Shown here one piece after another: positions 9,593 through 62,011 of a stretch of 64,000 bases of DNA. The first letter of the stretch is position 1. Every line of letters starts with the position of its first letter. The translations under genes were made by a program, and so were the position numbers. This DNA comes from Escherichia coli (lineage in GTDB: Bacteria; Pseudomonadota; Gammaproteobacteria; Enterobacterales; Enterobacteriaceae). The DNA lies in the NCBI RefSeq assembly GCF_016026235.1, contig NZ_CP065613.1. One strand, given 5' to 3'. The notes beneath the pieces were generated by a model, which was given only the letters and a program-made list of their open reading frames with translations, ran no database searches and was not told the origin of the DNA.

Positions 9593-11008
9593 ATGACAGA
9601 TCTTCCCGACAGCACCCGTTGGCAATTGTGGATTGTGGCTTTCGGCTTCTTTATGCAGTCGCTGGACACCACCATCGTAAACACCGCCCTTCCCTCAATG
9701 GCGCAAAGCCTCGGGGAAAGTCCGTTGCATATGCACATGGTCATTGTCTCTTATGTGCTGACCGTGGCGGTGATGCTGCCCGCCAGCGGCTGGCTGGCGG
9801 ACAAAGTCGGCGTGCGCAATATTTTCTTTACCGCCATCGTGCTGTTTACTCTCGGTTCACTGTTTTGCGCGCTTTCCGGCACGCTGAACGAACTGTTGCT
9901 GGCACGCGCGTTACAGGGCGTTGGCGGCGCGATGATGGTGCCGGTCGGCAGATTGACGGTGATGAAAATCGTACCGCGCGAGCAATATATGGCGGCGATG
10001 ACCTTTGTCACGTTACCCGGTCAGGTCGGTCCGCTGCTCGGTCCGGCGCTCGGCGGTCTGCTGGTGGAGTACGCGTCGTGGCACTGGATCTTTTTGATCA
10101 ACATTCCGGTGGGGATTATCGGTGCGATCGCCACATTGCTGTTAATGCCGAACTACACCATGCAGACGCGGCGCTTTGATCTCTCCGGATTTTTATTGCT
10201 GGCGGTTGGCATGGCGGTATTAACCCTGGCGCTGGACGGCAGTAAAGGTACAGGTTTATCGCCGCTGACGATTGCAGGCCTGGTCGCAGTTGGCGTGGTG
10301 GCACTGGTGCTTTATCTGCTGCACGCCAGAAATAACCACCGCGCTCTTTTCAGTCTGAAACTGTTCCGCACTCGTACCTTTTCGCTGGGCCTGGCGGGGA
10401 GCTTTGCCGGACGTATTGGCAGTGGCATGTTGCCCTTTATGACACCGGTTTTCCTGCAAATTGGCCTCGGTTTCTCGCCTTTTCATGCCGGACTGATGAT
10501 GATCCCGATGGTGCTCGGCAGCATGGGGATGAAGCGAATTGTGGTACAGGTGGTGAATCGCTTTGGCTATCGTCGGGTACTGGTGGCAACCACGCTTGGC
10601 CTGTCGCTGGTCACCCTGTTGTTTATGACTACCGCCCTGCTGGGCTGGTACTACGTTTTGCCGTTCGTCCTGTTTTTACAAGGGATGGTCAACTCGACGC
10701 GTTTCTCCTCCATGAACACCCTGACGCTGAAAGATCTCCCGGACAATCTGGCGAGCAGCGGCAACAGCCTACTGTCGATGATTATGCAATTGTCGATGAG
10801 TATCGGCGTCACTATCGCCGGGCTGTTGCTGGGACTTTTTGGTTCACAGCATGTCAGCGTCGACAGCGGCACCACACAAACCGTCTTTATGTACACCTGG
10901 CTTAGCATGGCGTTGATCATCGCCCTTCCGGCGTTCATCTTTGCCAGAGTGCCGAACGATACGCATCAAAATGTAGCTATTTCGCGGCGAAAAAGGAGCG
11001 CGCAATGA
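9593..11008 (+). CDS. mdtD: MFS transporter MdtD (471 aa)
   Basis: ORF track; contiguous with mdtC; multi-TM hydrophobic protein. Confidence 0.9.
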
Positions 11009-12408
11009 AGTTCTGGCGACCCGGTATTACCGGCAAACTGTTTCTGGCGATTTTCGCCACCTGCATTGTCTTGCTGATCAGTATGCACTGGGCGGTGCGT
11101 ATCAGTTTTGAGCGTGGCTTTATTGATTACATCAAGCATGGTAATGAACAGCGATTACAACTGTTAAGTGATGCGCTTGGCGAGCAGTATGCGCAGCATG
11201 GCAACTGGCGCTTCCTGCGCAACAATGATCGCTTTGTCTTTCAGATCCTGCGTTCATTTGAACACGATAATTCGGAAGATAAACCCGGCCCGGGTATGCC
11301 ACCGCACGGCTGGCGTACCCAGTTCTGGGTGGTTGATCAAAACAACAAAGTGCTGGTTGGTCCGCGAGCGCCGATTCCACCTGACGGTACACGGCGACCC
11401 ATTCTGGTCAACGGTGCGGAAGTTGGCGCGGTGATCGCCTCCCCCGTTGAGCGGTTAACGCGCAATACTGATATCAATTTCGATAAACAACAGCGGCAAA
11501 CCAGCTGGTTGATTGTCGCCCTGGCAACGTTACTCGCGGCACTTGCCACTTTTCTGCTGGCGCGCGGTTTACTGGCACCGGTAAAACGACTTGTCGATGG
11601 CACGCACAAACTGGCGGCGGGCGATTTCACTACCCGCGTAACGCCCACCAGTGAAGATGAACTGGGCAAACTGGCGCAAGACTTCAACCAGCTTGCCAGC
11701 ACACTGGAGAAAAACCAGCAAATGCGGCGCGATTTTATGGCCGATATTTCTCACGAACTGCGTACGCCATTAGCGGTGCTGCGCGGTGAACTGGAAGCCA
11801 TTCAGGATGGCGTGCGTAAATTCACGCCGGAGACGGTGGCGTCTTTACAGGCGGAGGTCGGTACACTGACCAAACTGGTTGACGATCTCCATCAGTTGTC
11901 GATGTCTGATGAAGGCGCTCTCGCCTATCAAAAAGCACCGGTAGATTTGATCCCACTGCTGGAAGTGGCGGGCGGCGCATTTCGCGAACGATTCGCCAGT
12001 CGTGGCCTGAAACTGCAATTTTCCCTGCCAGACAGTATTACCGTATTTGGCGATCGCGACCGTTTAATGCAGTTATTCAATAACTTACTTGAAAACAGCC
12101 TGCGCTATACTGACAGCGGCGGCAGCCTGCAAATCTCTGCCGGGCAGCGCGACAAAACGGTGCGCCTGACCTTTGCCGACAGTGCGCCAGGTGTCAGTGA
12201 CGATCAGCTACAAAAATTGTTTGAACGTTTTTATCGCACCGAAGGTTCCCGCAACCGTGCCAGCGGCGGTTCCGGGCTGGGGCTGGCGATTTGCCTGAAC
12301 ATTGTTGAAGCACATAATGGTCGCATTATTGCTGCCCATTCGCCTTTTGGCGGGGTAAGCATTACAGTAGAGTTACCGCTGGAACGGGATTTACAGAGAG
12401 AAGTATGA
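11005..12408 (+). CDS. baeS: Envelope stress sensor histidine kinase BaeS (467 aa)
   Basis: ORF track; HAMP and H-box ([12 protein letters not shown]) plus ATPase motifs; overlaps mdtD by 4 bp. Confidence 0.9.
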
Positions 12409-13127
12409 CCGAGTTACCAATCGACGAAAACACACCGCGTATTTTGATCGTGGAAGATGAACCGAAGCTGGGGCAGTTGCTCATTGATTATCTGCGTGCT
12501 GCGAGCTATGCGCCGACGCTTATCAGCCACGGCGATCAGGTACTGCCGTATGTGCGCCAGACACCACCGGATCTGATCCTGTTAGATCTGATGCTCCCTG
12601 GCACCGATGGCCTGACGCTGTGCCGGGAAATTCGTCGTTTTTCTGACATTCCGATCGTGATGGTGACGGCAAAAATCGAAGAGATCGATCGCCTGCTGGG
12701 GCTGGAGATTGGCGCAGATGACTACATCTGCAAGCCGTACAGCCCACGGGAAGTGGTAGCGCGCGTCAAAACCATTTTGCGCCGTTGCAAACCGCAGCGC
12801 GAGTTGCAGCAACAGGATGCTGAAAGCCCGTTGATTATCGACGAAGGTCGTTTTCAGGCTTCATGGCGCGGTAAAATGCTTGACCTGACGCCTGCGGAAT
12901 TTCGTCTGCTGAAAACGCTCTCTCATGAACCAGGAAAAGTGTTCTCCCGCGAGCATTTGCTCAATCATCTTTATGACGACTACCGCGTAGTAACCGACCG
13001 CACCATCGACAGCCACATTAAAAACCTGCGCCGCAAGCTGGAATCTCTCGACGCCGAACAGTCATTTATCCGCGCCGTTTACGGCGTCGGTTACCGCTGG
13101 GAAGCCGACGCCTGCCGCATCGTTTAG
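12405..13127 (+). CDS. baeR: OmpR-family response regulator BaeR (240 aa)
   Basis: ORF track; receiver domain plus winged-helix C-terminus; overlaps baeS by 4 bp. Confidence 0.9.
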
Positions 13128-13281
13128 TTTTAGCGACATTATTTTGTTAGCCGGAGATGGCGTTCAGACCCGATCCGGCCACATTATCCCACGCATGGTC
13201 AGCAAACTGACATTATCTCTCCGCCCTGGCAGGCATCAGAAAATCGCTCATACTTTAATCGGTAAACAGCACCTTTAGATG

Positions 13282-14707
13282 TAATGCCAGTCAGTTAAGC
13301 AACTGACTGGCTCTTTTTCGGGGCTGTGGGGTATTTCCAGGGCCTCTCCTTTACCACTCTCGGGAAGGCCCTTCCCCTTCTCGTCGGTAATTTCACAAGT
13401 TGTCCCATACTTGCAAGATCGCGCATCAGCTCCGGTATACGTCCCGGTGAAGCGCCCTGCAATGTCATCAGCATTCTCATCACCATTCCGCATGATTCTG
13501 AGAAACTCAGTTGATTCGGCCAGTAACCTTTCAGATGTTCCGCCATTTTAATCATCTGATATCTCACCAGATTATAAGCCAGTAAGACACCCCACAGCTC
13601 TTGCTCCACAAGCTCCGGCTTTTTACTTCTCAGCGTCAGCCTGCTCAGTTGCATCGTCTGTTTTATCTCCCTGTATCCCAGTTCGATTTCCCAGCGATGA
13701 CTGTACAGATCCGCCATTTCTCCTCCGGGGAAGCGCATGGCGTCCGTCATCGACGTCAGCAGATGGCAGACTTTTCCTTTGCGCGTCACGGTCAGCAGGC
13801 GGGCTGTCACTTCATTTCCCAGTCCCGGCCACTTTTTTCGTGCCTGCGGGCTGGTTTTCAGCTTCACCAGATGATCGCCTTTACCCAGTTTTCTGAGCTC
13901 TTCATATTGCGCTCCCTTTCTGAGAGGTATCATCCAGTGGCGGTGTTCTCCCGCCAGGCTCCAGGCATTTAACAGTCCCAGTGAGTAATAACCTTTATCC
14001 ATTAACGTCAGAGTGTTATCGCCGGTTTGTTCTATAAGTTGCTCAGCAAGCTCATTTTCGCTGTTCTTCATCGTGCCGAAGGCTGCAGCCGTCAGCAGAT
14101 GGCTGGTCAGTTCCATCTGGCAGACCATTTTGACCTGCGGGTAGAGCGCCGGGTTCCCGGCATGTGTCTGGCGGGGGAAGGCTGCATCGTTCTCTGGTGT
14201 ATCCGGTGTGCGCCAGAACACACCATCGATGGCCAGCAGGGTCAGGCCGCACCAGTGCGGATGCGGCGTGGCGTTATGCCAGAGCTGCGCTGTTTTCGTG
14301 AACACGCGGCGGACAGCCTCACTTCCCAGGCGCTGGCGGGCCTGAATAACGGCACTGGGGGCAACGAAGGGGCGATTGCCCGGCAGCATGATGTCCAGGC
14401 GATTCACAATCTGGTGAAGAGGTTCTTTACGCTCAAGCGCCATGCCAACAATACACCAGACCATCATTTCGAGGGGAAGACGGCGCTTGCGTAGCGTTAC
14501 AGTACCTGATTCGGCAAGGCAACGAGAGATGAGTTCGGGGTCGAGGTAATCCCCCAGAGAAGTCAGTGGGTTACGCAGAGAATCGTAACGGGATACCAGA
14601 TCAAGAGCCTGTCCAATGTGCATAAAAAAATCCGGAAACAAGTGAGCGTTTCCGGATTCTTACACAGCCACTGGATCGGTCAACTGATCCTTAACTGATC
14701 GGCATTA
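13282..14707 (-). mobile_element. IS4, copy 1 (1426 bp)
   Basis: Ends TAATGCCAGTCAGTTAAG...CTTAACTGATCGGCATTA; 12-bp target site duplication CACCTTTAGATG at 13270-13281 and 14708-14719; inserted between baeR and yegP. Confidence 0.9.
13295..14623 (-). CDS. insG: IS4 transposase InsG (442 aa)
   Basis: ORF track 448 aa; start trimmed to [10 protein letters not shown] by recognition of IS4 transposase. Confidence 0.9.
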
Positions 14708-14755
14708 CACCTTTAGATGCTGTTTTCGATACACAATTTCAATCAAGGAGTCATT

Positions 14756-21308: not shown

Positions 21309-21340
21309 AAAAACTCCTGATTGTTAAGGGGGATAAACTC

Positions 21341-22635
21341 CTGAGGAATCCCCAGAAAACAAGACAGGCATAGTGAGATGTGATCTAATTGATTGTGCTA
21401 ACAATTTCAAGGAGATCACCACTATGCCTGCACGTTCATTATGCCAAAATTTCCTTAACAATATACTGGCCCCTTTGCATCTTTACCGTCAAAAATCACT
21501 GATTGACGCAACTAATGCTGTAATAAATGGCGCTTCCCTCACACTTACCAGTATCGGGCGTCATTTAACCGGTACGGCATCAGTTAAAAACAAAATAAAG
21601 CGGGTGGATCGACTGTTGGGGAATCGACATTTGCAAAATGAGGTTTCCACCATTTTTCAGCGAATTACCCAAAAGATTACGCGGGGAATGTCTCGTGTTG
21701 TGATACTCATTGACTGGAGTGCTTATCATGCCTCTCGTTTTCAGCTTTTGCGGGCAAGCCTGGCATGTGACGGGCGTTCTTTACCGTTGATGAGTTGTGT
21801 CGTTCCATCATCACAGACAGCGAATGCAGATGTACATGAGCGTTTTCTGGAATCGCTTGCTGAGTGCTTTTCCCCCGGGACTGATGTCATTGTTATTACA
21901 GATGCCGGTTTTCAGGGGCGATGGTTCCAACAGCTCCGCTCCCGTGGCTGGACCTATATTTGCCGGGTACTGGGCAATCATTATTACAATGTTGGTAATG
22001 GCTGGGAAAAGGTGTCGGACTCAGGCACAAAAGCATCAACGACAGCAATTTATTTAGGTGAAGGCCTGCTGGGTCGAGATAAAAATGCACAACATGAAGG
22101 GCATTTTTATCTTTATAAAAGTAAGCCTAAAGGTCGTAGATTTAAACGCTCGAAGGAAAGAGCAACCAGACCATCGGTGACGGCTAAAGCTCGTACTGCC
22201 GGGAAATCACCATGGTTTATTTTCACAAACAGTACTGAGTTCTCGCCAAAACAGGTAATGAAATTATACAGCCGTAGAATGCAAATTGAGCAAAATTTCA
22301 GGGATGAAAAAAATCCTCGCTGGGGATTTGGACTACGGTTTGGTGCCAGTCATTCATCCGGGCGGGTCACGGTATTGAGTCTGATCGCAACATTAGCCAG
22401 TATCATTATGTGGTTAAGCGGTTTCAGCCTGGAAAACAAAGGGATACATCATAAATATCAGGCAAATACAGTGAAGCACAGGCGAGTCATCTCGTTATTA
22501 AAACTGGCGGAGAATGTGATTCGACATTCTCCACTCATACTAAACACACTGTCACTTGACGCAGGGCTGAAAGTTCTACAGCAACGGTATACCAATATGA
22601 TAATGGTTTACTAAATTTTCTGGGGATCCCTCAGG
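21341..22635 (+). mobile_element. IS10-like IS4-family insertion sequence, copy 2 (1295 bp)
   Basis: Same TIRs as copy 1; 9-bp target site duplication GATAAACTC at 21332-21340 and 22636-22644; sits in the gatC-gatD junction. Confidence 0.85.
21373..22614 (+). CDS. IS4-family (IS10-like) DDE transposase
   Basis: Protein identical to copy 1 in the ORF track; at least two synonymous DNA differences from copy 1. Confidence 0.8.
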   Translation: MRCDLIDCANNFKEITTMPARSLCQNFLNNILAPLHLYRQKSLIDATNAVINGASLTLTSIGRHLTGTASVKNKIKRVDRLLGNRHLQNEVSTIFQRITQKITRGMSRVVILIDWSAYHASRFQLLRASLACDGRSLPLMSCVVPSSQTANADVHERFLESLAECFSPGTDVIVITDAGFQGRWFQQLRSRGWTYICRVLGNHYYNVGNGWEKVSDSGTKASTTAIYLGEGLLGRDKNAQHEGHFYLYKSKPKGRRFKRSKERATRPSVTAKARTAGKSPWFIFTNSTEFSPKQVMKLYSRRMQIEQNFRDEKNPRWGFGLRFGASHSSGRVTVLSLIATLASIIMWLSGFSLENKGIHHKYQANTVKHRRVISLLKLAENVIRHSPLILNTLSLDAGLKVLQQRYTNMIMVY

Positions 22636-22659
22636 GATAAACTCCCCCTCAGTTAAAAA

Positions 22660-46030: not shown

Positions 46031-48262
46031 AATTCCTAAAGTTGTTTTCTTACGATTTTGTCTCTCTCTAACCCGCATAAATACTGGTAGCATCTGCATT
46101 CAACTGGATAAAATTACAGGGATGCAGAATGAGACACTTTATCTATCAGGACGAAAAATCACATAAATTCTGGGCGGTTGAGCAGCAGGGAAACGAGCTG
46201 CATATCAACTGGGGCAAAGTCGGCACTAACGGGCAAAGCCAGATAAAAAGTTTTGCGGATGCTGCGGCAGCGGCAAAAGCGGAGCTTAAGCTGATCGCAG
46301 AGAAAACGAAAAAAGGCTATGTGGAAAATGCTTCAGCAAACGTGCATATCCCCCCCATTACCAAAGCCACTCCTGAAGTTGAAACTTCCCCTGAGAGTAA
46401 AAACCAACGCCCCTGGCTGGCTGATGATGCGGTCATTCGGCTAACTGACGATATTAATCGATTTGCTTTTCCTCATCGCTCTCGCCCCAGAGAGATCAAT
46501 TATCTGCACAAAGATGGTCAAATATGGCAGCTCATCGCGAATAACACCAGGGCATATGATCCCGCCAACAATTACCGTTCTTATCCAGAAAACTGGCAGC
46601 AGGCTTTTGCTGAGTTACAAATGCGAGTTCAGGGTAATCAACAGACAGGGAGTGCACAATCTGATGCAGCATTGCTCTGGAGTTTCTGGAACTCTTACTC
46701 TGCAGATGAACTGGTCGATGACTTAGTCATTCGCTGTGGTCTGGAAAGTGCCGTTGAAATTGCCCTTCTCGCTCTTCAACTTAGATATAAACCAGTAAAA
46801 GGCGCAGTAACCACCATCATTCCACCTAATCACAAAGCAGAATCGCTGCCGAGTTGGCATCAACGTCTATGTCATCATCTTTCACTCACTTCAGAAGATG
46901 AGTGGCAACGCTGTGTAGATAAAGTACTCGCCGCCATTCCGACGCTATCCCCAGCACGGCAACCTTTTGCGGCGTTACTGCTCCCCGAATGCCCGGATAT
47001 TGCCAATGCTATGGCGCTACGTTATGCAGACCAAAACGTTCCGGCGATGACCTGGTTAAGTATGATGGTAAGCGATGATGTTGCCCTGGCCATCCAGGAA
47101 AAATATGGTTTCCCACCGCTATATAATGATTTCCGCAAATATCTGGCTACGTTGCTGGCAAATAATGGAATGCGTGGTGTAAGCCGGATTCTTCTCAAGC
47201 TACCTGTCGACTATCCCGTAAAATACACGGACCTTTTCACTCACATACACGCCAATGCTGAAGATCTTGTCAAATGGCTATGGAAAACGAATCACCCGGA
47301 TGCGATTCAAATTCTGATCCTCGGTGTAAATGGCAAGAAAAAGCACCTGGAATACTTAAGCAAAGCCTGCCCAAAACATCCCGCTGCGGCTATTGCCGCT
47401 TATGCTACTTTGCTGGCAATACATGAAAATAATGAGTGGCGTAAAGCGCTTGTCAAACTGATTACCGCCACGCCAGAGTTAGTATGCGAGGTCATTCCCT
47501 GGGTTAATGCTAAGGCGGCAGGCATCTTATCTGAATGTCGTCCGCTGCCAGTAGCTGAAGAATGTGAATATGCCACTGTGGATATGTTGCCGGAGCTGCT
47601 TGTCGCTCCACCGTGGGTAATAAATAAGAAAAAGAATGTCATACCCGTATTTGATTTACCGGTACTTCCCATTCCTGCCGTCACGGATATCACACCAGGA
47701 ATTACAGAGTTAATCAGTCATACTGACATATCCAGATTCAGTGAAATTGCGCAATATCAGGCATCACAGCAAACCTTATTTACCGATCTGCCACTAATTG
47801 AAAAAGAAAGCTGGGAGACATCTTTCATTCCTTTTACACCAGAACAACAAATTCTTTGGCAATTAGGTTTTAATGAATGGCTGCATTGCGAAAATGACTT
47901 ACATGAAAAAAAATATATACCGCAAAGCGCTGTTGATGCCTTGTTGCGCTTTGATTTTTCAGCACTAAAAGCTGAGTTTGCGAAATATCACAACAATGCC
48001 AACAAAAGCTGGAATCTATCTGCGCTTTGTTACTTACCGGGACAACAGGCGATCTCATTTCTCAACCAAATAATCATTGAGGAGCGATATTCAGGTGAGA
48101 AAGAGATTCTGGCGGTTTTTGGTAGTACGGCCATTCCTGCGTTTATGACCTGCTTGCAACGAGATCATCAACGCCTGTGGATATTCACCCTTTTTATTGG
48201 AGCCAGTGAACTAGCCTTACCAATGGCGCAGCGGTTACAGAAAAAAATAGCTTACAAGGATG

Positions 48263-49688
48263 TAATGCCAGTCAGTTAAGCAACTGACTGGCTCTTTTTC
48301 GGGGCTGTGGGGTATTTCCAGGGCCTCTCCTTTACCACTCTCGGGAAGGCCCTTCCCCTTCTCGTCGGTAATTTCACAAGTTGTCCCATACTTGCAAGAT
48401 CGCGCATCAGCTCCGGTATACGTCCCGGTGAAGCGCCCTGCAATGTCATCAGCATTCTCATCACCATTCCGCATGATTCTGAGAAACTCAGTTGATTCGG
48501 CCAGTAACCTTTCAGATGTTCCGCCATTTTAATCATCTGATATCTCACCAGATTATAAGCCAGTAAGACACCCTACAGCTCTTGCTCCACAAGCTCCGGC
48601 TTTTTACTTCTCAGCGTCAGCCTGCTCAGTTGCATCGTCTGTTTTATCTCCCTGTATCCCAGTTCGATTTCCCAGCGATGACTGTACAGATCCGCCATTT
48701 CTCCTCCGGGGAAGCGCATGGCGTCCGTCATCGACGTCAGCAGATGGCAGACTTTTCCTTTGCGCGTCACGGTCAGCAGGCGGGCTGTCACTTCATTTCC
48801 CAGTCCCGGCCACTTTTTTCGTGCCTGCGGGCTGGTTTTCAGCTTCACCAGATGATCGCCTTTACCCAGTTTTCTGAGCTCTTCATATTGCGCTCCCTTT
48901 CTGAGAGGTATCATCCAGTGGCGGTGTTCTCCCGCCAGGCTCCAGGCATTTAACAGTCCCAGTGAGTAATAACCTTTATCCATTAACGTCAGAGTGTTAT
49001 CGCCGGTTTGTTCTATAAGTTGCTCAGCAAGCTCATTTTCGCTGTTCTTCATCGTGCCGAAGGCTGCAGCCGTCAGCAGATGGCTGGTCAGTTCCATCTG
49101 GCAGACCATTTTGACCTGCGGGTAGAGCGCCGGGTTCCCGGCATGTGTCTGGCGGGGGAAGGCTGCATCGTTCTCTGGTGTATCCGGTGTGCGCCAGAAC
49201 ACACCATCGATGGCCAGCAGGGTCAGGCCGCACCAGTGCGGATGCGGCGTGGCGTTATGCCAGAGCTGCGCTGTTTTCGTGAACACGCGGCGGACAGCCT
49301 CACTTCCCAGGCGCTGGCGGGCCTGAATAACGGCACTGGGGGCAACGAAGGGGCGATTGCCCGGCAGCATGATGTCCAGGCGATTCACAATCTGGTGAAG
49401 AGGTTCTTTACGCTCAAGCGCCATGCCAACAATACACCAGACCATCATTTCGAGGGGAAGACGGCGCTTGCGTAGCGTTACAGTACCTGATTCGGCAAGG
49501 CAACGAGAGATGAGTTCGGGGTCGAGGTAATCCCCCAGAGAAGTCAGTGGGTTACGCAGAGAATCGTAACGGGATACCAGATCAAGAGCCTGTCCAATGT
49601 GCATAAAAAAATCCGGAAACAAGTGAGCGTTTCCGGATTCTTACACAGCCACTGGATCGGTCAACTGATCCTTAACTGATCGGCATTA
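48263..49688 (-). mobile_element. IS4, copy 2 (1426 bp)
   Basis: Same ends as copy 1; 12-bp target site duplication CTTACAAGGATG at 48251-48262 and 49689-49700. Confidence 0.9.
48276..49604 (-). pseudogene. insG: IS4 transposase with premature amber codon
   Basis: Single C-to-T difference at 48574 relative to copy 1 (13593) changes TGG (Trp) to TAG at 48573-48575; the ORF track shows the split 349 aa + 90 aa. Confidence 0.85.
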
Positions 49689-52600
49689 CTTACAAGGATG
49701 CCGTTAATTGGCTGGCAAATAACCCGCGCCATGCCGCCGCTGGGCTACTGCCTTTGGCGCTGGGCAAACCGTGCCAAAATCGGGAATATGCCCGCCAGGC
49801 ACTCCTCCTGCTAGTGAAATTAAACCAGCGAGAAACGATTGAGGAAATCGCCCAAGGATATAATCAACCTGATGTTTTAGCTGCGCTGGCAACATTATTT
49901 GATAGCGACCCACTGGAAGAATATCCTGCAAAAATCGCCCCACTGCCCGGCTTTTATCAGTTCCCCTTATGGCGCAGACCTCGGCTTAAAAGTAACAACC
50001 TGCCTCTGCCAGATGACGCTATGCGCCACCTCGGCACAATGTTGAGCTTTCCACGCGACATTACCTCCTACGCTGGGCTGGCGATCATCAAAGAGACCTT
50101 CACCCGCGAATCACTGGCTGACTTTGGCTGGGATCTCTACACGGCATGGACAGAAGCAGGCGCACCCGCAAAAGAGAACTGGGCATTTACCTCGCTGGGG
50201 ATTCTAGGCAATGACGACACCGCGCGTAAACTAACCCCGCTCATCCGCGCCTGGCCGGGTGAATCCCAGCATAAACGCGCGGTTTACGGGCTGGATGTGT
50301 TAGCCAGTATCGGTAGCGACATTGCGCTTATGTTGCTTAATGGCATTGCGCAAAAGATTAAATTCGTTGCATTACAGGAACATGCCAGCGACAGAATCAA
50401 TATGGTCGCCGAAAATCGCGGACTGACAATGGCCGAACTGGAAGATCGCCTGGCACCGGATTTAGGGCTTGATAGCAGTGGCTCGCTGACACTGGATTTC
50501 GGCCCACGTCAATTTACCGTTGGTTTTGACGAAACTTTAAAACCTGTAGTGCGCGACGCAAACGGCAAAGTCCTGAAAGATTTGCCCAAACCAAACCAGA
50601 GCGATGAAAAAACTCAGGCAACTGACGCGGTTAATCTCTTCAAACAGTTGAAAAAAGATGTACGCGCCATAGCCAGCCAGCAGATTGATCGTCTGGAACA
50701 GGCTATGTGCCAGCGCAGACGCTGGACGGCAGAGCAGTTCCGCCTGTTTCTGGTGGAGCATCCGCTGGTACGTCACTTAACCCGACGGCTGTTATGGGGG
50801 GTTTATAACGATGAAAACGCCCTTATCACCTGTTTTCGCGTGGCAGAAGACAGCACTTACAGCGATGCGCAGGATGAGTTATTCACGCTGCCAGCAGGAA
50901 ACATCGGTATACCGCATGTGCTGGAAATCCCCCCTGAATCCGCCGCTGCATTCAGGCAAATTTACGTTGATTACGAACTGCTTCCCCCTTTCCAACAGCT
51001 CGAACGTGGTAGTTACCACCTTGCTGATAACGAACGTAATGTCCATGAATTGTCACGCTGGGACGGACGTCTCTGCCAGGCCGGACGCATTGTCGGGCTG
51101 GAACGCAGAGGCTGGCAACGTCTGGAAGAAAGCGGCAGCGTCTATGCGATGCGCAAATCTACCCCTTATGGTGCTCTCGAACTTGAAACAGAACCTTTTT
51201 CATTAATTTATGGCGAAACGGGGTATAGCGACCTGCTGCCTGTCGAAAGCGTAAAAATCACCGCCCCTTATGATCGCTATGGTAAACAATCCTCACCCAC
51301 TTTCTCCGTGCTCGACGACATCACCGCCAGCGAGCTGATTAACGACATTGAATCACTGTTTGATTAAAAGGATTTAACAATGAAAACCTATATTTATCAG
51401 GACGAAAAATCACATAAATTCTGGGCGGTGGAGCAGCAGAGAAACGAGCTGCATATCAACTGGGGCAAAGTCGGCACTAACGGGCAAAGTCAGGTAAAAA
51501 GCTTTGCTGATGCTGCGGCGGCAGAAAAAGCGGAACTGAAGCTGATTGCGGAGAAGGTGAAGAAGGGGTATGTGGAGCAAGTAGACGCTAACGCTCACTC
51601 ACATGATGCCTCAGCAAAGAAAGTCCTAGTCACAGAGGAAAAAGCCTCAATAAATCACCAGGCAGCAACTAATGGTTTACCCTGGCTGGCAGACAACGAT
51701 CCCATTATTCTTCCCCCGAATATTGCCCGCCATGCCCTCAGCCACCGCCTTTGGCCGGGAGAGCCAGTAAAAAAACCAACCAAACCCGAGAAACAAAATT
51801 TAATTTCCCGATTGGCAAATCGTACTTATCATTATTATAAAAATCTGACTTTCGATTACAGCTCATGCTCTGATGAATGGGCTGATGCGATTAGCCAGGC
51901 AATCAGCTTAATTAAGGCCCAAAAGACTGAGATACCCGCGCGTACTATGGCGGTACTTACTTTTCTGGAAATATGTTTTTGTCAGGGCTGGAATGATGAA
52001 ACCTCATCCGAGTTGCTGGATGAAATTGTAAGCACCTTCGGTATCGAATACGCAACTGAAACTGTCATCTTCTGGTGGCAAATTGATTTCGATTTTGACT
52101 ATAAAGATGAACATTTGACTTTCTTTATTAATTATGCAGATAGCAGCAAGGACAGTTATAGAAGGAATAACGACAAATTTAGTTTACGTCTGCGTAAACA
52201 TTTATCACTAGCAGAAGAAGAAGTATGGCAAAATTGCATTGCAAAATTACTCGTTGCGTTACCAGATATATCACTCTATCGCCAACCGTTAATTGCCATT
52301 TTAATGCCAGAAATACCCGAAGTGGCCCATGAGATCGTACATCGTTTACACCAGGTCGCAGATGTTCCACAACTTGAAATGTTGAAACTGGTAGCGACAG
52401 ATCCATTCACGCTCGAAATACTGGAGAACTATCAATACATTGATGTATTTAACACCTATGGTGCCAGTTGGTCAGCTACGGTATTACGGGAACAAGGTAT
52501 AGCGGCACTGGCTCGCCTGGCTTCCTATGCTGAAGAAGATAATTGCGGTGACGTACTGAAATGTATTAATCATCCGTTGGCCATTACGGCACTCATCGAA

Positions 52601-52951
52601 GCCGCCGATACTAATAAACGCTGTTATGAACGACTAATAAAAAGTGCCGAAAATTTTCCTTCTGCCACGATAGCGGCATTAGCCGAAGCATTGGTAAAAA
52701 AAGATGATAAACGCAAACATACGTTGCTGGTTTCATTACTTAATGCAAATCCTTTATTGGTCGAAAAATTAGTCATCGGATTATCGTCGCAAGCGGCAAA
52801 TTTATTGCAACAATGTCAGCAATTGCTGAATAGTCGCAATGAAGATTTTGCAAACTCAGAAATTCTACCAATGGTACTAGTCTCGCCGCCCTGGGAAACT
52901 CAAAATAAAAATAACGACAACAGTCCTGTGGGTAAATACCCGGCGAAAATC

Positions 52952-54246
52952 CCTGAGGGATCCCCAGAAAATTTAGTAAACCATTATCATATTGGTATAC
53001 CGTTGCTGTAGAACTTTCAGCCCTGCGTCAAGTGACAGTGTGTTTAGTATGAGTGGAGAATGTCGAATCACATTCTCCGCCAGTTTTAATAACGAGATGA
53101 CTCGCCTGTGCTTCACTGTATTTGCCTGATATTTATGATGTATCCCTTTGTTTTCCAGGCTGAAACCGCTTAACCACATAATGATACTGGCTAATGTTGC
53201 GATCAGACTCAATACCGTGACCCGCCCGGATGAATGACTGGCACCAAACCGTAGTCCAAATCCCCAGCGAGGATTTTTTTCATCCCTGAAATTTTGCTCA
53301 ATTTGCATTCTACGGCTGTATAATTTCATTACCTGTTTTGGCGAGAACTCAGTACTGTTTGTGAAAATAAACCATGGTGATTTCCCGGCAGTACGAGCTT
53401 TAGCCGTCACCGATGGTCTGGTTGCTCTTTCCTTCGAGCGTTTAAATCTACGACCTTTAGGCTTACTTTTATAAAGATAAAAATGCCCTTCATGTTGTGC
53501 ATTTTTATCTCGACCCAGCAGGCCTTCACCTAAATAAATTGCTGTCGTTGATGCTTTTGTGCCTGAGTCCGACACCTTTTCCCAGCCATTACCAACATTG
53601 TAATAATGATTGCCCAGTACCCGGCAAATATAGGTCCAGCCACGGGAGCGGAGCTGTTGGAACCATCGCCCCTGAAAACCGGCATCTGTAATAACAATGA
53701 CATCAGTCCCGGGGGAAAAGCACTCAGCAAGCGATTCCAGAAAACGCTCATGTACATCTGCATTCGCTGTCTGTGATGATGGAACGACACAACTCATCAA
53801 CGGTAAAGAACGCCCGTCACATGCCAGGCTTGCCCGCAAAAGCTGAAAACGAGAGGCATGATAAGCACTCCAGTCAATGAGTATCACAACACGAGACATT
53901 CCCCGCGTAATCTTTTGGGTAATTCGCTGAAAAATGGTGGAAACCTCATTTTGCAAATGTCGATTCCCCAACAGTCGATCCACCCGCTTTATTTTGTTTT
54001 TAACTGATGCCGTACCGGTTAAATGACGCCCGATACTGGTAAGTGTGAGGGAAGCGCCATTTATTACAGCATTAGTTGCGTCAATCAGTGATTTTTGACG
54101 GTAAAGATGCAAAGGGGCCAGTATGTTGTTAAGGAAATTTTGGCATAATGAACGTGCAGGCATAGTGGTGATCTCCTTGAAATTGTTAGCACAATCAATT
54201 AGATCACATCTCACTATGCCTGTCTTGTTTTCTGGGGATTCCTCAG
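52952..54246 (-). mobile_element. IS10-like IS4-family insertion sequence, copy 3 (1295 bp, inverted)
   Basis: Same TIRs; 9-bp target site duplication GCGAAAATC at 52943-52951 and 54247-54255. Confidence 0.85.
52973..54214 (-). CDS. IS4-family (IS10-like) DDE transposase
   Basis: Same protein as copies 1 and 2; ORF-track entry 52973-54301 is extended N-terminally past the IS end, so it is trimmed to the position equivalent to the copy 1 start. Confidence 0.8.
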   Translation of the reverse strand: MRCDLIDCANNFKEITTMPARSLCQNFLNNILAPLHLYRQKSLIDATNAVINGASLTLTSIGRHLTGTASVKNKIKRVDRLLGNRHLQNEVSTIFQRITQKITRGMSRVVILIDWSAYHASRFQLLRASLACDGRSLPLMSCVVPSSQTANADVHERFLESLAECFSPGTDVIVITDAGFQGRWFQQLRSRGWTYICRVLGNHYYNVGNGWEKVSDSGTKASTTAIYLGEGLLGRDKNAQHEGHFYLYKSKPKGRRFKRSKERATRPSVTAKARTAGKSPWFIFTNSTEFSPKQVMKLYSRRMQIEQNFRDEKNPRWGFGLRFGASHSSGRVTVLSLIATLASIIMWLSGFSLENKGIHHKYQANTVKHRRVISLLKLAENVIRHSPLILNTLSLDAGLKVLQQRYTNMIMVY

Positions 54247-55725
54247 GCGAAAATCCCCCCTTTACCGTTGTTTTATCAACCTCCATTATGGACTCGCCCA
54301 AAACTCAAAAATAGCAGCAAGGTACTGCCAGATAACGCCCTCCTCCACCTCGGTGAAATGCTCCGCTTCCCTCAGGAAGAGGCCCTGTATCCGGGATTAT
54401 TGCAGGTGAAAGATGCCTGTACCGCCGACTCACTGGCTGAATTTGCCTGGGATCTGTTTACCGCCTGGCTGACTGCGGGCGCACCGTCGAAAGAGAGTTG
54501 GGCGTTCACTGCGTTAGGCGTTCTTGGTAACGATGACACCGCCCGCAAACTGACGCCATTAATACGCGCCTGGCCTGGTGAATCCCAGCATAAACGCGCC
54601 ACCGTTGGGTTGGATATTCTCGCCGCTATCGGTAGTGATATCGCCCTGATGCAGCTTAACGGTATTGCCCAGAAACTGAAATTCAAAGCATTACAGGAGC
54701 GGGCAAAAGAAAAAATTGCCGACATTGCCGAAAGCCGCGAACTCACGGTGGCAGAGCTTGAAGATCGGTTAGCACCGGATCTCGGTCTGGATGATAACGG
54801 TTCGTTGCTGCTGGATTTCGGCTCACGCCAGTTCACCGTCAGCTTTGATGAAACCTTAAAACCGTTTGTGCGTGATGTTTCTGGCAGCCGTCTGAAAGAC
54901 CTGCCCAAACCAAACAAAAGCGATGATGAATCACAGGCGAACGATGCTGTTAACCGCTACAAACTGCTGAAAAAAGATGCGCGTACCGTCGCCGCCCAGC
55001 AGGTAGCAAGGCTGGAATCCGCCATGTGCCTGCGTCGCCGCTGGTCACCGGAAAACTTTCAGCTCTTCCTGGTTGAGCATCCGCTAGTTCGCCACTTAAC
55101 CCGCCGTCTGATTTGGGGCGTTTATAGCGCCGAAAACCAGCTACTGGCCTGTTTCCGGGTAGCGGAAGATAACAGCTACAGCACCGCTGACGATGATCTT
55201 TTCACCCTGCCGGAAGGCGATATCTCTGTTGGTATTCCTCACGTTCTGGAAATATCACCGACGGATGCCGCCGCATTTGGGCAGCTTTTTGCCGACTACG
55301 AACTGCTACCGCCGTTCCGCCAACTCGACCGTAACAGTTACGCCCTGACAGAAACCGAGCGCAATGCCAGCGAACTGACCCGCTGGGCAGGCAGAAAATG
55401 CCCGAGCGGTCGGGTAATGGGGCTGGCGAATAAAGGCTGGATAAAGGGCGAACCACAGGATGGAGGCTGGATCGGCTGGATGATCAAACCTCTGGGCCGC
55501 TGGTCGTTAATCATGGAAATCGATGAAGGCTTTGCGGTAGGCATGTCGCCAGCCGAACTGAGTGCCGAGCAACTCTTAAGCAAGCTGTGGCTATGGGAAG
55601 GCAAAGCGGAAAGCTATGGCTGGGGGAGTAATTCAACACAGGAAGCGCAGCTCTCCGTACTCGATGCCATCACCGCCAGCGAGCTAATTAACGATATTGA
55701 AGCCCTGTTTGAATAAGGAAAGAGC

Positions 55726-58700
55726 ATGGACAAGGAATTACCGTGGCTGGCTGATAACGCCCAACTGGAACTGAAATATAAAAAGGGTAAAACACCACTC
55801 AGCCATCGCAATTGGCCGGGCGAACCAGTGCCTGTTATCACTGAAAGCATCATTCAGACACTGGGTGATGAATTGCTACAAAAAGCTGAGAAGAAAAAAA
55901 ACATTGTCTGGCGTTATGAAAATTTTTTACTGGAGTGGCAGTCCGCCATCACGCAGGCCATCAACTTGATCGGCGAACACAAACCCTCAATCCCAGCCCG
56001 GACAATGGCGGCGCTAGCCTGTATCGCGCAAAATGACAGCCAACAGTTGCTCGACGAAATCGTCCAACAAGAGGGGCTGGAATATGCGACGGATGTAGTG
56101 ATGGCGCGTCAGTGCATTGCGCGGCGTTATGAGAGTGATTCACTGGTCGTCACTTTGCAGTATCAGGACGAGGACTATGGCTACGGTTATGGCTCCGCGA
56201 CCTATAACGATTTCGATCTCCGTTTGCGTAAGCATCTGTCGCTGGCAGAGGAAAGTTGCTGGCAGCGTTGTGCCGATAAACTCATTGCCGCACTGCCAGG
56301 AATACCCAAAATTCGCCGTCCTTTTATTGCGCTGATCCTCCCGGAAAAGCCTGAAATAGCCAATGAACTCGCCAGTCTTGAAAGCTCCCGGTCAAGTCTC
56401 CATTCAAAGGAGTGGTTAAAGGTCGTTGCTACTGATAATACGGCGGTAAAAAAACTCGAACGATACTGGGGCCTGGACGTATTTAGCGATCGCGAAGCCA
56501 GCTACATGTCACAAAAAAACCACTTCGGCTACGCGGCCTGCGCCGCCCTTTTGCGCGAACAAGGACTGGCAGCCATTCCGCGCCTCGCGATGTATGCCCA
56601 TAAAGAAGATTGCGGCAGTCTGTTGGTACAAATTAACCATCCGCAGGTCATCCACACCTTGCTACTGGTGGCTGATAAAAACAAACCCAGCCTGCAACGT
56701 GTGGCTAAATACAGTAAAAACTTCCCCCACGCGACGCTCGCGGCACTGGCAGAACTGCTGGCGTTAAAAGAACCACCAGCCCGCCCTGGTTATCCAATCA
56801 TCGAAGACAAAAAGCTGCCTGCCCAGCAAAAAGCACGCGATGAATACTGGCGTACGCTGTTACAAACGCTGATGGCATCGCAGCCACAACTGGCAGAAGA
56901 GGTGATGCAGTGGTTAAGTACTCAAGCCCGGGCAGTACTGAATAGTTATTTATTGGCACCGCCCAAACCGGTTATTGATGGCACCGATAACAGCAATCTG
57001 CCTGAAATCCTCGTTTCACCACCGTGGCGTAGTAAGAAAAAAATGACAGCTCCACGTCTTGATTTGGCACCGCTCGAATTAACCCCGCAAGTTTACTGGC
57101 AACCAGGCGAACAAGAGAGGCTTGCCTCCACTGAGTCTGCCCGTTATTTCAGCACGGAATCTCTTGCGGAACGCATGGAACAAAAAAGTGGGCGAGTTGT
57201 ATTACAGGAACTGGGTTTTGGGGATGATGTATGGCTGTTTCTGAATTATATACTCCCCGGAAAACTGGATGCTGCACGCAATTCACTCATTGTTCAGTGG
57301 CATTACTACCAGGGGCGGGTTGAAGAGATCCTGAATGGCTGGAACTCCCCGGAAGCACAATTAGCAGAACAGGCGCTCCGCAGCGGTCACATAGAAGCGT
57401 TAATTAACATATGGGAAAATGACAACTACTCACGTTATCGTCCGGAAAAGAGTGTCTGGAACCTGTATTTATTGGCACAGTTGCCGCGTGAGATGGCTTT
57501 GACCTTCTGGCTGCGTATCAATGAGAAAAAACATCTGTTCGCGGGTGAGGACTATTTTCTTAGTATCCTCGGGTTGGATGCGCTACCAGGTCTGATGTTG
57601 GCTTTTTCACATCGTACAAAAGAAACATTTCCGTTAATTTTAAATTTTGGCGCAACAGAACTGGCCCTGCCCGTTGCCCGCGTCTGGCGACGTTTCGCGG
57701 TGCAGCGTGATCTGGCTCGCCAGTGGATTTTACATTGGCCGGAACATACGGCTACTGCACTTATCCCTCTTGTCTTCACCAAATCCAGCGATAATAGCGA
57801 AGCTGCATTACTTGCCCTGCGTTTACTTTACGAACATGGGCATGGCGAATTGCTACAAACTGTAGCCAATCGTTGGCAGCGTAAAGATGTATGGCCTGCC
57901 CTGGAACAATTACTGAAACAGGGTCCAATGGACATTTACCCGGCACGCATTCCAAAAGCCCCTGATTTCTGGCATCCGGCAATGTGGTCCAGGCCTCGAC
58001 TTATCACTAATAATCAGCCTGTTACCGATGACGCTCTGGAAATTATCGGCGAAATGCTGCGCTTTACCCAGGGGGGACGTTTTTATAGCGGGCTGGAACA
58101 ACTGAAAACGTTTTGCCAGCCACAAACGCTGGCCGCTTTTGCCTGGGATCTCTTCACTGCGTGGCAACAAGCTGGTGCCCCCGCAAAAGACAACTGGGCA
58201 TTTCTGGCGTTAAGTCTCTTTGGTGACGAAAGCACGGCTCGGGATCTGACGACACAGATCCTCGCCTGGCCACAAGAAGGCAAATCTGCCCGTGCTGTCA
58301 TTGGTCTGAATATACTTACCTTGATGAATAATGATATGGCGCTGATACAGCTGCATCATGTATCACAACGGGCGAAATCCTCTTCATTACGTGAAAACGC
58401 AGCGGAATTTCTTCAGGTGGTCGCAGAAAATCGCGGGCTAAGCCAGGAAGAGTTAGCGGACAGATTAGTCCCAACACTGGGTCTTGATGATCCGCAGGCG
58501 TTGATTTTTGATTTTGGTCCCCGGCAGTTTACCGTTCGCTTCGATGAAAACCTCAACCCGGTTATCTTTGATCAGCAAAACGTTCGCCAGAAAAGCGTTC
58601 CCCGGTTGCGCGCCGATGACGATCAACTGAAAGCGCCCGAGGCACTGGCCCGACTAAAAGGGCTAAAAAAAGATGCTACTCAGGTGAGCAAAAACCTGCT

Positions 58701-59418: not shown

Positions 59419-59739
59419 ATGATCGTGCAAAAAGAGCTGGTTGCTATTTACGATTATGAGGTCCCTGTACCTGAAGATCCGTTTTCCTTCAGACTTGAGA
59501 TCCATAAATGCTCTGAATTATTTACAGGTTCCGTCTATCGACTGGAGCGATTCCGGCTACATCCAACATTTCATCAACGTGATCGAGAAGATGCTGACCC
59601 GCTAATAAATGATGCGTTGATTTATATAAGAGATGAGTGTATTGATGAGCGGAAATTACGAGGTGAATCACCTGAAACTGTAATAGCAATTTTTAATCGT
59701 GAACTACAGAATATATTCATCCAACAAATAGAAAAATAG
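59419..59739 (+). CDS. yehK: YehK (106 aa)
   Basis: ORF track; recognised. Confidence 0.8.
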   Translation: MIVQKELVAIYDYEVPVPEDPFSFRLEIHKCSELFTGSVYRLERFRLHPTFHQRDREDADPLINDALIYIRDECIDERKLRGESPETVIAIFNRELQNIFIQQIEK

Positions 59740-59792
59740 CTTTATTAAAGGGGGAAACGGTATTCCCCCTTAGATGCGTTTCAATTTGCCCG

Positions 59793-59882
59793 TTACTTCA
59801 ACAAATCAATCAACCGTAACAGAGCCACTAATAACTCCAGTACGGCAATGAGCACGATTAACTTTTGTGTCAGCGTGTCCAT
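59793..59882 (-). CDS. zorO: Type I toxin, ZorO-like (29 aa, MDTLTQKLIVLIAVLELLVALLRLIDLLK)
   Basis: Own translation; AAGGAG SD 5 nt upstream of the ATG; single predicted TM helix; matches my recollection of the Zor toxins of E. coli O157:H7. Confidence 0.7.
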   Translation of the reverse strand: MDTLTQKLIVLIAVLELLVALLRLIDLLK

Positions 59883-60063
59883 CCGCTCTCCTTATTAAGG
59901 AGCGCAACACCAGCACCTTACCCTTACACTGCCTGTCGATACTGGTTTACGTATGTTGGTACGAAACGTTGCTCTCCGGATCAGAGCACCGCCTGCGGCA
60001 CCACCCGTCCAGCAGCCAGGACTTAAAATTGGTCCGATCCGGCACAACCTCCCAACGGGCAGG

Positions 60064-60114
60064 ATTATAAATCTCATTCACTGAATTGCAATGGAGTGTG
60101 GATATGGTTATAAT
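60064..60114 (+). promoter_or_regulatory. Back-to-back promoters for zor (minus strand) and orz (plus strand) sharing a palindromic -35 hexamer, unit 1
   Basis: Plus strand: TTGCAA (60086-60091), 17 bp, TATAAT (60109-60114). Minus strand: the same TTGCAA, 16 bp, TATAAT (complement of 60064-60069). Confidence 0.6.
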
Positions 60115-60120
60115 TTATTC

Positions 60121-60203
60121 GTTGGTACGAAATGTTGCACAATCAGCAAGTTAGCGTCACTGTAGTAAATAAAAGAACCTGCCTCACCAGCAGGTTTTTT
60201 TAT
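60121..60203 (+). ncRNA. orzO: OrzO-like antitoxin sRNA (~83 nt)
   Basis: Predicted TSS 7 nt after the -10; 5' end GUUGGUACGAAAUGUUGC is complementary (one G-U) to the zor 5' UTR at 59955-59972; ends at terminator CCTGCCTCACCAGCAGG plus T7. Confidence 0.65.
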
Positions 60204-60400
60204 TTTCTGCGATCTACTTTCCAGATATTTTTTGCCAATAGCCCACCATAAATATTCACATCCCGGTCAAATGGTGCGTTGAATATAAAATCGATGAACT
60301 TATAAATAAACATGAGTTATATGATGAATTAATAAAAACAGTAATCATTTTATTAAAGGGGGAAGCGGTTTTCCCCCTTAGATGCGTTTCAATTTGCCCG

Positions 60401-60490
60401 TTACTTCAACAAATCAATCAACTGTAACAGAGCTACTAATAGCTCCAGTACAGCAATGAGCACGGTTAACTTTTGTGTCAGCGTGTCCAT
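60401..60490 (-). CDS. zorP: Type I toxin, ZorP-like (29 aa, MDTLTQKLTVLIAVLELLVALLQLIDLLK)
   Basis: Own translation of the second repeat unit; 2 aa differences from unit 1 (I9T, R23Q). Confidence 0.7.
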   Translation of the reverse strand: MDTLTQKLTVLIAVLELLVALLQLIDLLK

Positions 60491-60671
60491 CCGCTCTCCT
60501 TATTAAGGAGCGCAACACCAGCACCTTACCCTTACACTGCCTGTCGATACTGGTTTACGTATGTTGGACCACGATGTTGCACTCCGGATCAGGGCACCAC
60601 CTGCAGCACCACCCGTCCGGTAGCCAGGACTTGAAATAGGTTCGATCCGGCGCAACGTCCCAACGGTCTGG

Positions 60672-60722
60672 ATTATAAATCTCATTATCTTAATTGCAAC
60701 GGGGTCCAGCCATGGTTATAAT
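60672..60722 (+). promoter_or_regulatory. Back-to-back zor/orz promoters sharing the palindromic -35, unit 2
   Basis: TTGCAA 60694-60699; plus-strand -10 TATAAT 60717-60722; minus-strand -10 is the complement of 60672-60677. Confidence 0.6.
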
Positions 60723-60728
60723 TCGTTC

Positions 60729-60811
60729 GTTGGAACACGATGTTGCACAGGCTGTGGTGTTAGGCCTGAAAATAGTAAATAAAAGAACCTGCCTCACCAG
60801 CAGGTTTTTTT
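60729..60811 (+). ncRNA. orzP: OrzP-like antitoxin sRNA (~83 nt)
   Basis: 5' end GUUGGAACACGAUGUUGCAC pairs with the unit-2 UTR at 60563-60582 (one mismatch); terminator CCTGCCTCACCAGCAGG plus T7. Confidence 0.65.
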
Positions 60812-60922
60812 ATTTACTGTGATCTGCTTTCCAGATATTTTTCGCTCAAACAACTAATGCGCCAAACATTTATTGCGCGTAAAATATCGTTTATTTCATT
60901 AATACATTTCAGGGATGAATAT

Positions 60923-62011
60923 ATGTCACCGCAGAATAATCATCTGCAGCGTCCGCCTGCTGCTGTGTTATACGCCGATGAACTGGCAAAATTAAAACAA
61001 AATGATAACGCACCTTGCCCGCCCGGTTGGCAGTTAAGTTTGCCTGCGGCCCGTGCTTTTATCCTTGGCGATAGCGCGCAAAATATTAGCCGTAAAGTGG
61101 TGATTAGTCCCTCCGCTGTCGAACGTATGTTAGTCACTCTTGCCACCGGACGCGGTTTGATGTTGGTGGGGGAACCTGGCACCGCAAAATCTCTCCTGTC
61201 TGAATTACTGGCAACCGCTATTAGCGGCGATGCCGGGTTAACCGTCCAGGGCGGCGCATCTACTACCGAAGATCAAATCAAGTACGGCTGGAACTACGCC
61301 CTGCTTATCAATCATGGTCCATCAACGGAAGCGCTGGTCCCTGCCCCGCTTTACCAGGGAATGCGCGACGGCAAAATCGTCCGTTTTGAAGAGATAACGC
61401 GTACACCGCTGGAAGTGCAAGACTGTCTGTTAGGCATGCTTTCTGACAGGGTGATGACGGTGCCGGAACTCACTGGTGAAGCCAGTCAGCTCTATGCGCG
61501 AGAAGGCTTTAATATTATTGCCACTGCCAATACCCGCGATCGCGGCGTCAATGAAATGAGTGCTGCGCTAAAGCGTCGCTTCGATTTTGAAACTGTCTTT
61601 CCGATTATGGATTTCGCCCAGGAGCTGGAGCTTGTCGCCAGTGCTTCGGCGCGTTTGCTGGCCCATAGCGGTATTCCGCATAAAGTGCCTGACGCGGTAC
61701 TGGAGTTACTGGTCCGCACCTTCCGCGATCTGCGTGCCAACGGCGAAAAGAAAACGTCAATGGATACACTAACAGCGATTATGTCCACGGCTGAAGCCGT
61801 GAACGTGGCCCACGCCGTGGGCGTCCGCGCCTGGTTTTTAGCGAATCGCGCGGGGGAGCCTGCCGACCTGGTGGACTGTATTGCCGGAACCATCGTCAAA
61901 GATAACGAAGAAGATCGCGCTCGTCTGCGCCGTTACTTCGAACAGCGTGTCGCCACACATAAAGAAGCTCACTGGCAGGCTTATTATCAAGCCCGCCACC
62001 GCCTGCCGTGA
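60923..62011 (+). CDS. yehL: MoxR-family AAA+ ATPase YehL (362 aa)
   Basis: ORF track 60857-62011; start trimmed to MSPQNNHLQ; Walker A GEPGTAKS. Confidence 0.85.
   Translation: MSPQNNHLQRPPAAVLYADELAKLKQNDNAPCPPGWQLSLPAARAFILGDSAQNISRKVVISPSAVERMLVTLATGRGLMLVGEPGTAKSLLSELLATAISGDAGLTVQGGASTTEDQIKYGWNYALLINHGPSTEALVPAPLYQGMRDGKIVRFEEITRTPLEVQDCLLGMLSDRVMTVPELTGEASQLYAREGFNIIATANTRDRGVNEMSAALKRRFDFETVFPIMDFAQELELVASASARLLAHSGIPHKVPDAVLELLVRTFRDLRANGEKKTSMDTLTAIMSTAEAVNVAHAVGVRAWFLANRAGEPADLVDCIAGTIVKDNEEDRARLRRYFEQRVATHKEAHWQAYYQARHRLP

Follow-up and report, generated by a model that had tools for sequence, protein, structure and literature searches.

An amber codon in the transposase gene of one of two IS4 copies in a 64-kb region of Escherichia coli

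The two IS4 copies and the amber codon

We put a probability of roughly 0.85 on the following reading of the second of two IS4 copies in a 64-kb stretch of Escherichia coli DNA, the whole of which is referred to below as the window: it would be a true insertion of IS4 into a yehI-like gene, which has since acquired a nonsense mutation (W344*) in its transposase gene and is now a non-autonomous, decaying element, whose ends may still serve as substrates for transposition.

Both elements are 1426 bp long and run on the minus strand. Copy 1 (13282..14707), whose ends are set by its inverted repeats and target duplications, is intact, and copy 2 (48263..49688) equals it except at position 48574, where direct reading gives T for the C found at 13593 of copy 1. 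When the match was extended at an offset of 34,981 bp, one mismatch was found across 13278-14708 versus 48259-49689, and the five extra matching bases beyond the IS4 ends (GATG on the left and C on the right) are a chance identity of the flanks. The IS4 copies have terminal inverted repeats (16/18 bp; TAATGCCAGTCAGTTAAG / TAATGCCGATCAGTTAAG), and copy 2 has the same ends as copy 1 and the K-12 IS4. Copy 1 is flanked by a perfect 12-bp target-site duplication (left 13270..13281, right 14708-14719; CACCTTTAGATG) and copy 2, in the same form, by a perfect 12-bp duplication of its own (left 48251..48262, right 49689-49700; CTTACAAGGATG). Terminal repeats and a target duplication of 10-13 bp, that is about one helical turn, by which the IS4 family is defined (PMC2266710), are thus found in both copies. 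The preliminary description of the window had stated that the two copies are the same 1426 bp but for T at 48574 against C at 13593, and that the ends of copy 2 are intact, and it had called for a full pairwise alignment; the alignment with its single mismatch, the direct reading, and the inverted repeats taken together with the 12-bp duplication bear out these statements.

The transposase gene of copy 1 (13295..14623, minus strand) encodes 442 aa followed by a stop, with TGG as codon 344 at 13592-13594. Minus-strand translation of copy 2 gives TAG for this TGG (W344*, 48573..48575; changed base 48574), as had been described, and the truncated ORF (48573..49604, minus strand, with its ATG at 49604) consists of 343 codons and the TAG, so that the truncation, earlier placed after ~343 residues, leaves exactly 343 aa against 442 aa in copy 1. 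The remainder of the frame (48276..48572, minus strand; codons 345-442 and the stop) is untranslated, in frame and unmutated, and an 86-aa ORF has been annotated in it by gene callers in the public record. The copy 1 transposase possesses the Pfam domains Nterm_IS4 (18-109) and DDE_Tnp_1 (126-352), scores 303.8 bits with NCBIfam transpos_IS4_1 (the cut-off being 115) and is found exactly in public databases; the exact 343-aa product of copy 2 is also on deposit (STM86291.1, 'transposase insG [Escherichia coli]'). A single ORF carries the DDE triad and the Y(2)R(3)E(6)K motif, and in copy 2 it is interrupted after residue 343; D133, D209 and E314, as well as Y307-R310-E314-K321 (YREK), all lie upstream of the stop and are retained in its product. 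Copy 2 therefore has the make-up of a defective IS, with a broken transposase frame and both ends intact. The truncated transposase and this type of lesion are already known, in so far as the protein has been deposited and annotation pipelines recognise such stops. A Dcm (CCWGG) deamination hot spot was considered as a cause of the transition and rejected, the motif being missing around 48574.

Insertion sites

Copy 1 lies between baeR (ending at 13127) and yegP, a site at which IS4 is also found in six complete E. coli genomes. Copy 2 interrupts a yehI-like WGR/DUF4132 gene of the plus strand, whose 5' part (46129..48279) has an ORF that enters the IS by 17 bases and whose 3' part resumes past copy 2 (49701 to 51367); when the IS and one copy of the duplication are removed in silico, the two parts join into one uninterrupted frame of 1,266 codons. 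At the identical yehI position E. coli JNQH497 carries an intact IS4, likewise oriented but of a different haplotype (11 differences from copy 1, and 12 from copy 2, the amber site included). It was considered as a timing reference for the mutation and set aside, since divergence at 11 positions points to an independent hit on a hot spot.

As a separate observation, the IS4 target sites resemble hairpin or terminator palindromes (window 13263-13288 and 14701-14726; locus L003 at 9887-9916 and 11343-11372; the flanks in L028 and L019), such as AAACAGC..GCTGTTT at copy 1, GCCACC-TTTTC-GGTGGC after rpoD, GGCAGC..GCTGCC, and CCCCCAGC-TAG-GCTGGGGG. At five of five IS4 sites the duplicated segment ends in TG (GATG, GGTG or GCTG). 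A short-read contig (L005) has IS4 in the rpoD-mug hairpin in the orientation opposite to that of L003.

What the truncation removes

The product of copy 2 loses 99 residues (344-442). This segment does not look like a dispensable tail, being conserved about as well as the catalytic core: over 83 homologues of ~30% identity the mean column conservation is 0.47 for 344-431 versus 0.50 for the core. In the same 83 sequences S373 and R422 are invariant, N351, R354, A361, F374, R416, R418 and K425 are at least 90% conserved, residue 344 is aromatic in 74, and D133, D209, E314 and the YREK residues are invariant or nearly so; 15 closer homologues (68-92% identity) all have W344 and show no variation over most of 344-431. 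In an AlphaFold model built on the 83-sequence alignment (pLDDT 90.4, pTM 0.89) a helix at 336-363 spans the stop and is cut after eight residues; helices at 374-387 and 396-410 follow. A structure prediction from 15 sequences (at least 68% identity) reached pLDDT 41 and was discarded.

When the model is compared with solved structures by Foldseek, Tn5 transposase chains come out best (E 1.6e-9 to 3.3e-8, probability 1.00, with TM only 0.39-0.48 and without residue-level mapping), with 1MUH at the top (E=1.6e-9, probability 1.00). Sequence searches of the PDB, both with the single protein and with a profile, returned nothing, and Tn5 was found by fold comparison only. The YREK residues of Tn5 include Y319, R322 and E326 (PMC2566895), and if Y307/R310/E314 of IS4 are aligned to them, this motif register places the IS4 stop ~13 residues upstream of the Tn5 Δ369 point. 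Tn5 Δ369, which is deprived of 108 C-terminal residues with the dimerisation subdomain included, still forms a monomer complex with end DNA and cannot form the transpososome (PMC2632911). Judging from the motif register, the part removed from IS4 should correspond to the Tn5 part that holds the dimerisation subdomain, and it would be logical to expect that IS4 Tnp(1-343) fails at pairing, or synapsing, two ends.

Because the truncated protein is not expected to synapse two ends, copy 2 is most likely non-autonomous, a loss of activity that is suggested by the conservation of the missing segment and by the Tn5 analogy. The earlier suggestion that copy 2 may be immobile on its own is a well-supported inference, in view of the conserved residues lost (83 homologues) and of the putative Tn5 Δ369 equivalent (PMC2632911). 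Tnp(1-343) may have residual or altered activity, all catalytic residues being retained.

The proposed course of events would then be as follows. IS4 would have inserted into the yehI-like WGR/DUF4132 gene, giving copy 2, and a later transition at 48574, G-to-A as read along the coding strand and C-to-T in plus-strand terms, would have converted Trp344 to amber. The resulting 343-residue product keeps the IS4 N-terminal domain and the full catalytic set and loses what lies downstream of the break in helix 336-363. The ends of copy 2 would remain substrates for a full-length transposase supplied by copy 1 or by other copies, since they are identical to the ends of copy 1 and of the K-12 element. 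W344* is, in our opinion, nothing unusual, and represents the kind of change with which the decay of a mobile element commonly begins.

Rarity of the amber allele and IS4 haplotypes

A 61-base probe centred on the variant finds 4,114 IS4 places, distributed over 2,009 of the 5,426 complete E. coli genomes searched; the amber allele has no exact match among these places, chromosomal or plasmid; with the same probe it has none in 351 places on 211 plasmids, 130 of them from Shigella. The lack of exact matches in the genome and plasmid sets shows that the amber allele is derived, rare and confined to a small lineage. It has been seen in three assemblies and is probably present in four short-read data sets, and it may be used as a convenient lineage marker.

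Copy 1 differs from the K-12 IS4 at 6 of 1426 positions. Compared with the IS4 on pWR501, the invasion plasmid of Shigella flexneri, it has three differences, all private to the plasmid copy; 811C, 1326G and 1334G are common to the window IS4 and pWR501 and set both apart from the K-12 type. In the lineages of enteroinvasive E. coli and Shigella five IS have expanded, IS4 among them, and the IS4 alleles of enteroinvasive E. coli group with those of Shigella (PMC7373316), a published clustering with which the haplotype of the window agrees.

Some further variation was noticed. IS position 1334 (window 13373 and 48354) falls in codon 417, which is Gly417 in both window copies and in pWR501, and Glu in the K-12 IS4 and in 13 of 14 homologues at 68-92% identity, the other having Lys; Gly417 is a derived change of the Shigella-type IS4 in a conserved 14-letter protein segment. 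A 401-aa variant of the IS4 transposase (cluster P0127, 1,517 members) is 98-99% identical over the first ~301 residues and then diverges, which points to a frameshifted IS4 allele that is widespread and far more frequent than the amber one.

Nonsense alleles at second loci

The same amber base is found at another locus. In GCA_002968245.1 it is carried by an IS4 between rpoD and mug which has its own 13-bp duplication (CACCTTTTCGGTG); this copy has 811C and 1326G like the window IS4, but position 1334 holds the ancestral A and position 420 a T that is private to it. A second nonsense allele shows a similar picture. Q341* is an ochre codon (CAA to TAA, IS position 1105), which 37 complete E. 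coli genomes carry at glcA-gspK and which NCBI labels there as a pseudogene ('IS4-like element IS4 family transposase, internal stop'); a copy of the very same haplotype, flanked by a duplication of its own, has it at bamD-raiA in another assembly. These two-locus nonsense alleles suggest either that complemented copies still move or that gene conversion has spread the mutations.

The preliminary description had also proposed that copy 2 could be mobilised in trans by copy 1, and the two-locus pattern is compatible with this as a possibility. That the amber copy has already been mobilised in this way, which would account for its presence both in yehI and at rpoD-mug, is a tentative reading to which we give rather less than even odds. 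It is favoured by the separate 13-bp duplication of the rpoD-mug copy on the 811C/1326G background of the window, and by Q341*, which likewise occupies two loci with one haplotype and separate duplications. However, at IS positions 1115 and 1334 each of the four possible combinations (G-G, A-G, A-A and G-A) occurs in the copies examined, so that the four-gamete test fails and at least one gene conversion or recurrent mutation must have taken place; such an event, needed anyway, may have brought the mutation into a copy already in place, and it would account for the pattern of the amber allele equally well. Against mobilisation stands also the general preference of bacterial IS transposases for action in cis (PMC3205602).

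A stronger suggestion would be that, in IS-expanded E. coli and Shigella, IS4 lends its transposase in trans to defective copies much more easily than its relatives IS10 and IS50 do, or that the truncated, end-binding protein is retained as a trans-dominant inhibitor. We consider this pair of possibilities, taken together, unlikely.

Alternative explanations

The inhibitor can also be considered by itself. Tnp(1-343) would then bind the ends as a monomer, block synapsis and be retained for damping IS4 in a genome rich in IS, and one may point to its intact N-terminal domain and catalytic core, to the monomer complex that Tn5 Δ369 keeps forming with end DNA (PMC2632911), and to the persistence in lineages of Q341* and W344*, three codons apart and each at two loci. 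The clustering of lesions near codon 344 is, however, an ascertainment effect, because the copies were found through the 86-aa downstream ORF, which is called only if the break lies just upstream; look-ups with this ORF returned mostly IS4 with other lesions (IS1, IS3 and IS66 insertions, a +G frameshift, Q341*). The amber allele is, besides, very rare, and we regard a retained inhibitor as quite improbable.

It may further be proposed that ribosomes read through the stop, owing to a supE-type suppressor or in a programmed manner, and that copy 2 thus yields full-length transposase. The frame after the TAG is indeed open and unmutated over all 98 remaining codons, but the same is expected of any recent mutation. 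The stop is missing from every other IS4 copy examined in the genome and plasmid sets and from 83 of 83 homologues, and for this reason the TAG is not a conserved recoding site. A tRNA scan for a suppressor found no tRNA genes within the 64-kb window, so that this stretch speaks neither for nor against one. We attach hardly any weight to read-through.

Finally, T at 48574 could be a sequencing or consensus error and copy 2 really be intact. The source record looks like a long-read draft (NCTC), and GCA_014155105.1 has a 1-nt deletion within the same IS4 (IS position 531), hence such errors do occur. The public NCTC assembly GCA_900449985.1 (contig UGFA01000005.1) matches the window at 100% identity over 21,032 bp. 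GCA_014155105.1, an independent assembly of a near-identical strain, has 99.97% identity over 10 kb and the same base at the same locus, and a third assembly has the identical substitution at another locus. The IS4 contigs of four short-read assemblies stop at IS positions 1113-1115, 0-2 nt from the variant (1115), as would be expected of an assembly graph that branches where repeat copies differ; these breakpoints are supportive only, since the exact-protein look-up selects contigs that break there. Errors of long-read consensus are mostly indels, and a transition is not typical of them. With the base shared by independent assemblies, an artefact at 48574 is very unlikely.

Other elements of the window

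Besides the two IS4, the window contains three IS10-like copies of ~1.32 kb (482-1798 and 21328-22638 on the plus strand, 52941-54259 on the minus strand), which makes five full-length IS in 64 kb. The IS10-like elements (NCBIfam transpos_IS4_2, 360 bits) have ends CTGAGGAATCCCC... and their own 9-10-bp target duplications; one of them sits between gatD and gatC, and the one at 52941-54259 splits a WGR/DUF4132 gene. Diverged internal repeats of 62-88% identity (46128-46325 / 51379-51576; 50090-50280 / 54409-54599 / 58105-58295; 51303-51367 / 55652-55716) fall among the neighbouring WGR/DUF4132 genes, which are yehH/yehI/molR-like paralogues. A direct repeat with a period of ~608 bp and 91-95% identity (59723-60630 and 60163-60845) has no ORF of at least 80 aa, and is flanked by ORFs of 106 aa (59419-59739) and 384 aa (60857-62011); each of its units ends in a terminator-like hairpin, GAACCTGCCTCACCAGCAGGTTTTTTT.

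Significance and comparison with known systems

The proper annotation of copy 2 is a pseudogene with an internal stop, which leaves copy 1 as the one possible supplier of IS4 transposase in the region; beyond correct annotation, the W344* finding itself has little import. Of a wider interest may be the nonsense alleles at two sites and the failed four-gamete test, which suggest that the IS4 copies inside these genomes exchange sequence or complement each other, a matter of relevance to how the expansion of IS in Shigella and enteroinvasive E. coli is modelled (PMC7373316).

The element of the window is canonical IS4 (IS4 family, IS4 subgroup) in every defining feature tested. Like the K-12 IS4 (insG), the founding member of the family, it has 1426 bp, 18-bp terminal repeats, 11-13-bp target duplications and a 442-aa transposase with Nterm_IS4, DDE_Tnp_1 and the YREK motif. 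It differs from the K-12 element in that both window copies are of the Shigella/pINV type (811C, 1326G, and 1334G, which gives G417 where the family has E417), and copy 2 further carries W344*.

The closest natural counterparts of copy 2 are offered by the Q341* pseudogenes, which likewise combine a single nonsense mutation with an otherwise full-length IS4 and intact ends. Their stop, however, lies three codons upstream, on another IS4 haplotype, and occurs in 37 complete genomes, whereas the amber allele occurs in none.

Tn5 Δ369 shares with the truncated protein of copy 2 the family, probably the fold (according to Foldseek, at the low TM given above) and the kind of truncation, which falls shortly past the catalytic glutamate and takes away ~100 C-terminal residues. 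Sequence identity between the Tn5 and IS4 transposases is only ~12%, and whereas Tn5 Δ369 was engineered and its properties were measured, the IS4 truncation is natural, lies ~13 residues further upstream according to the motif register, and has an effect that is predicted.
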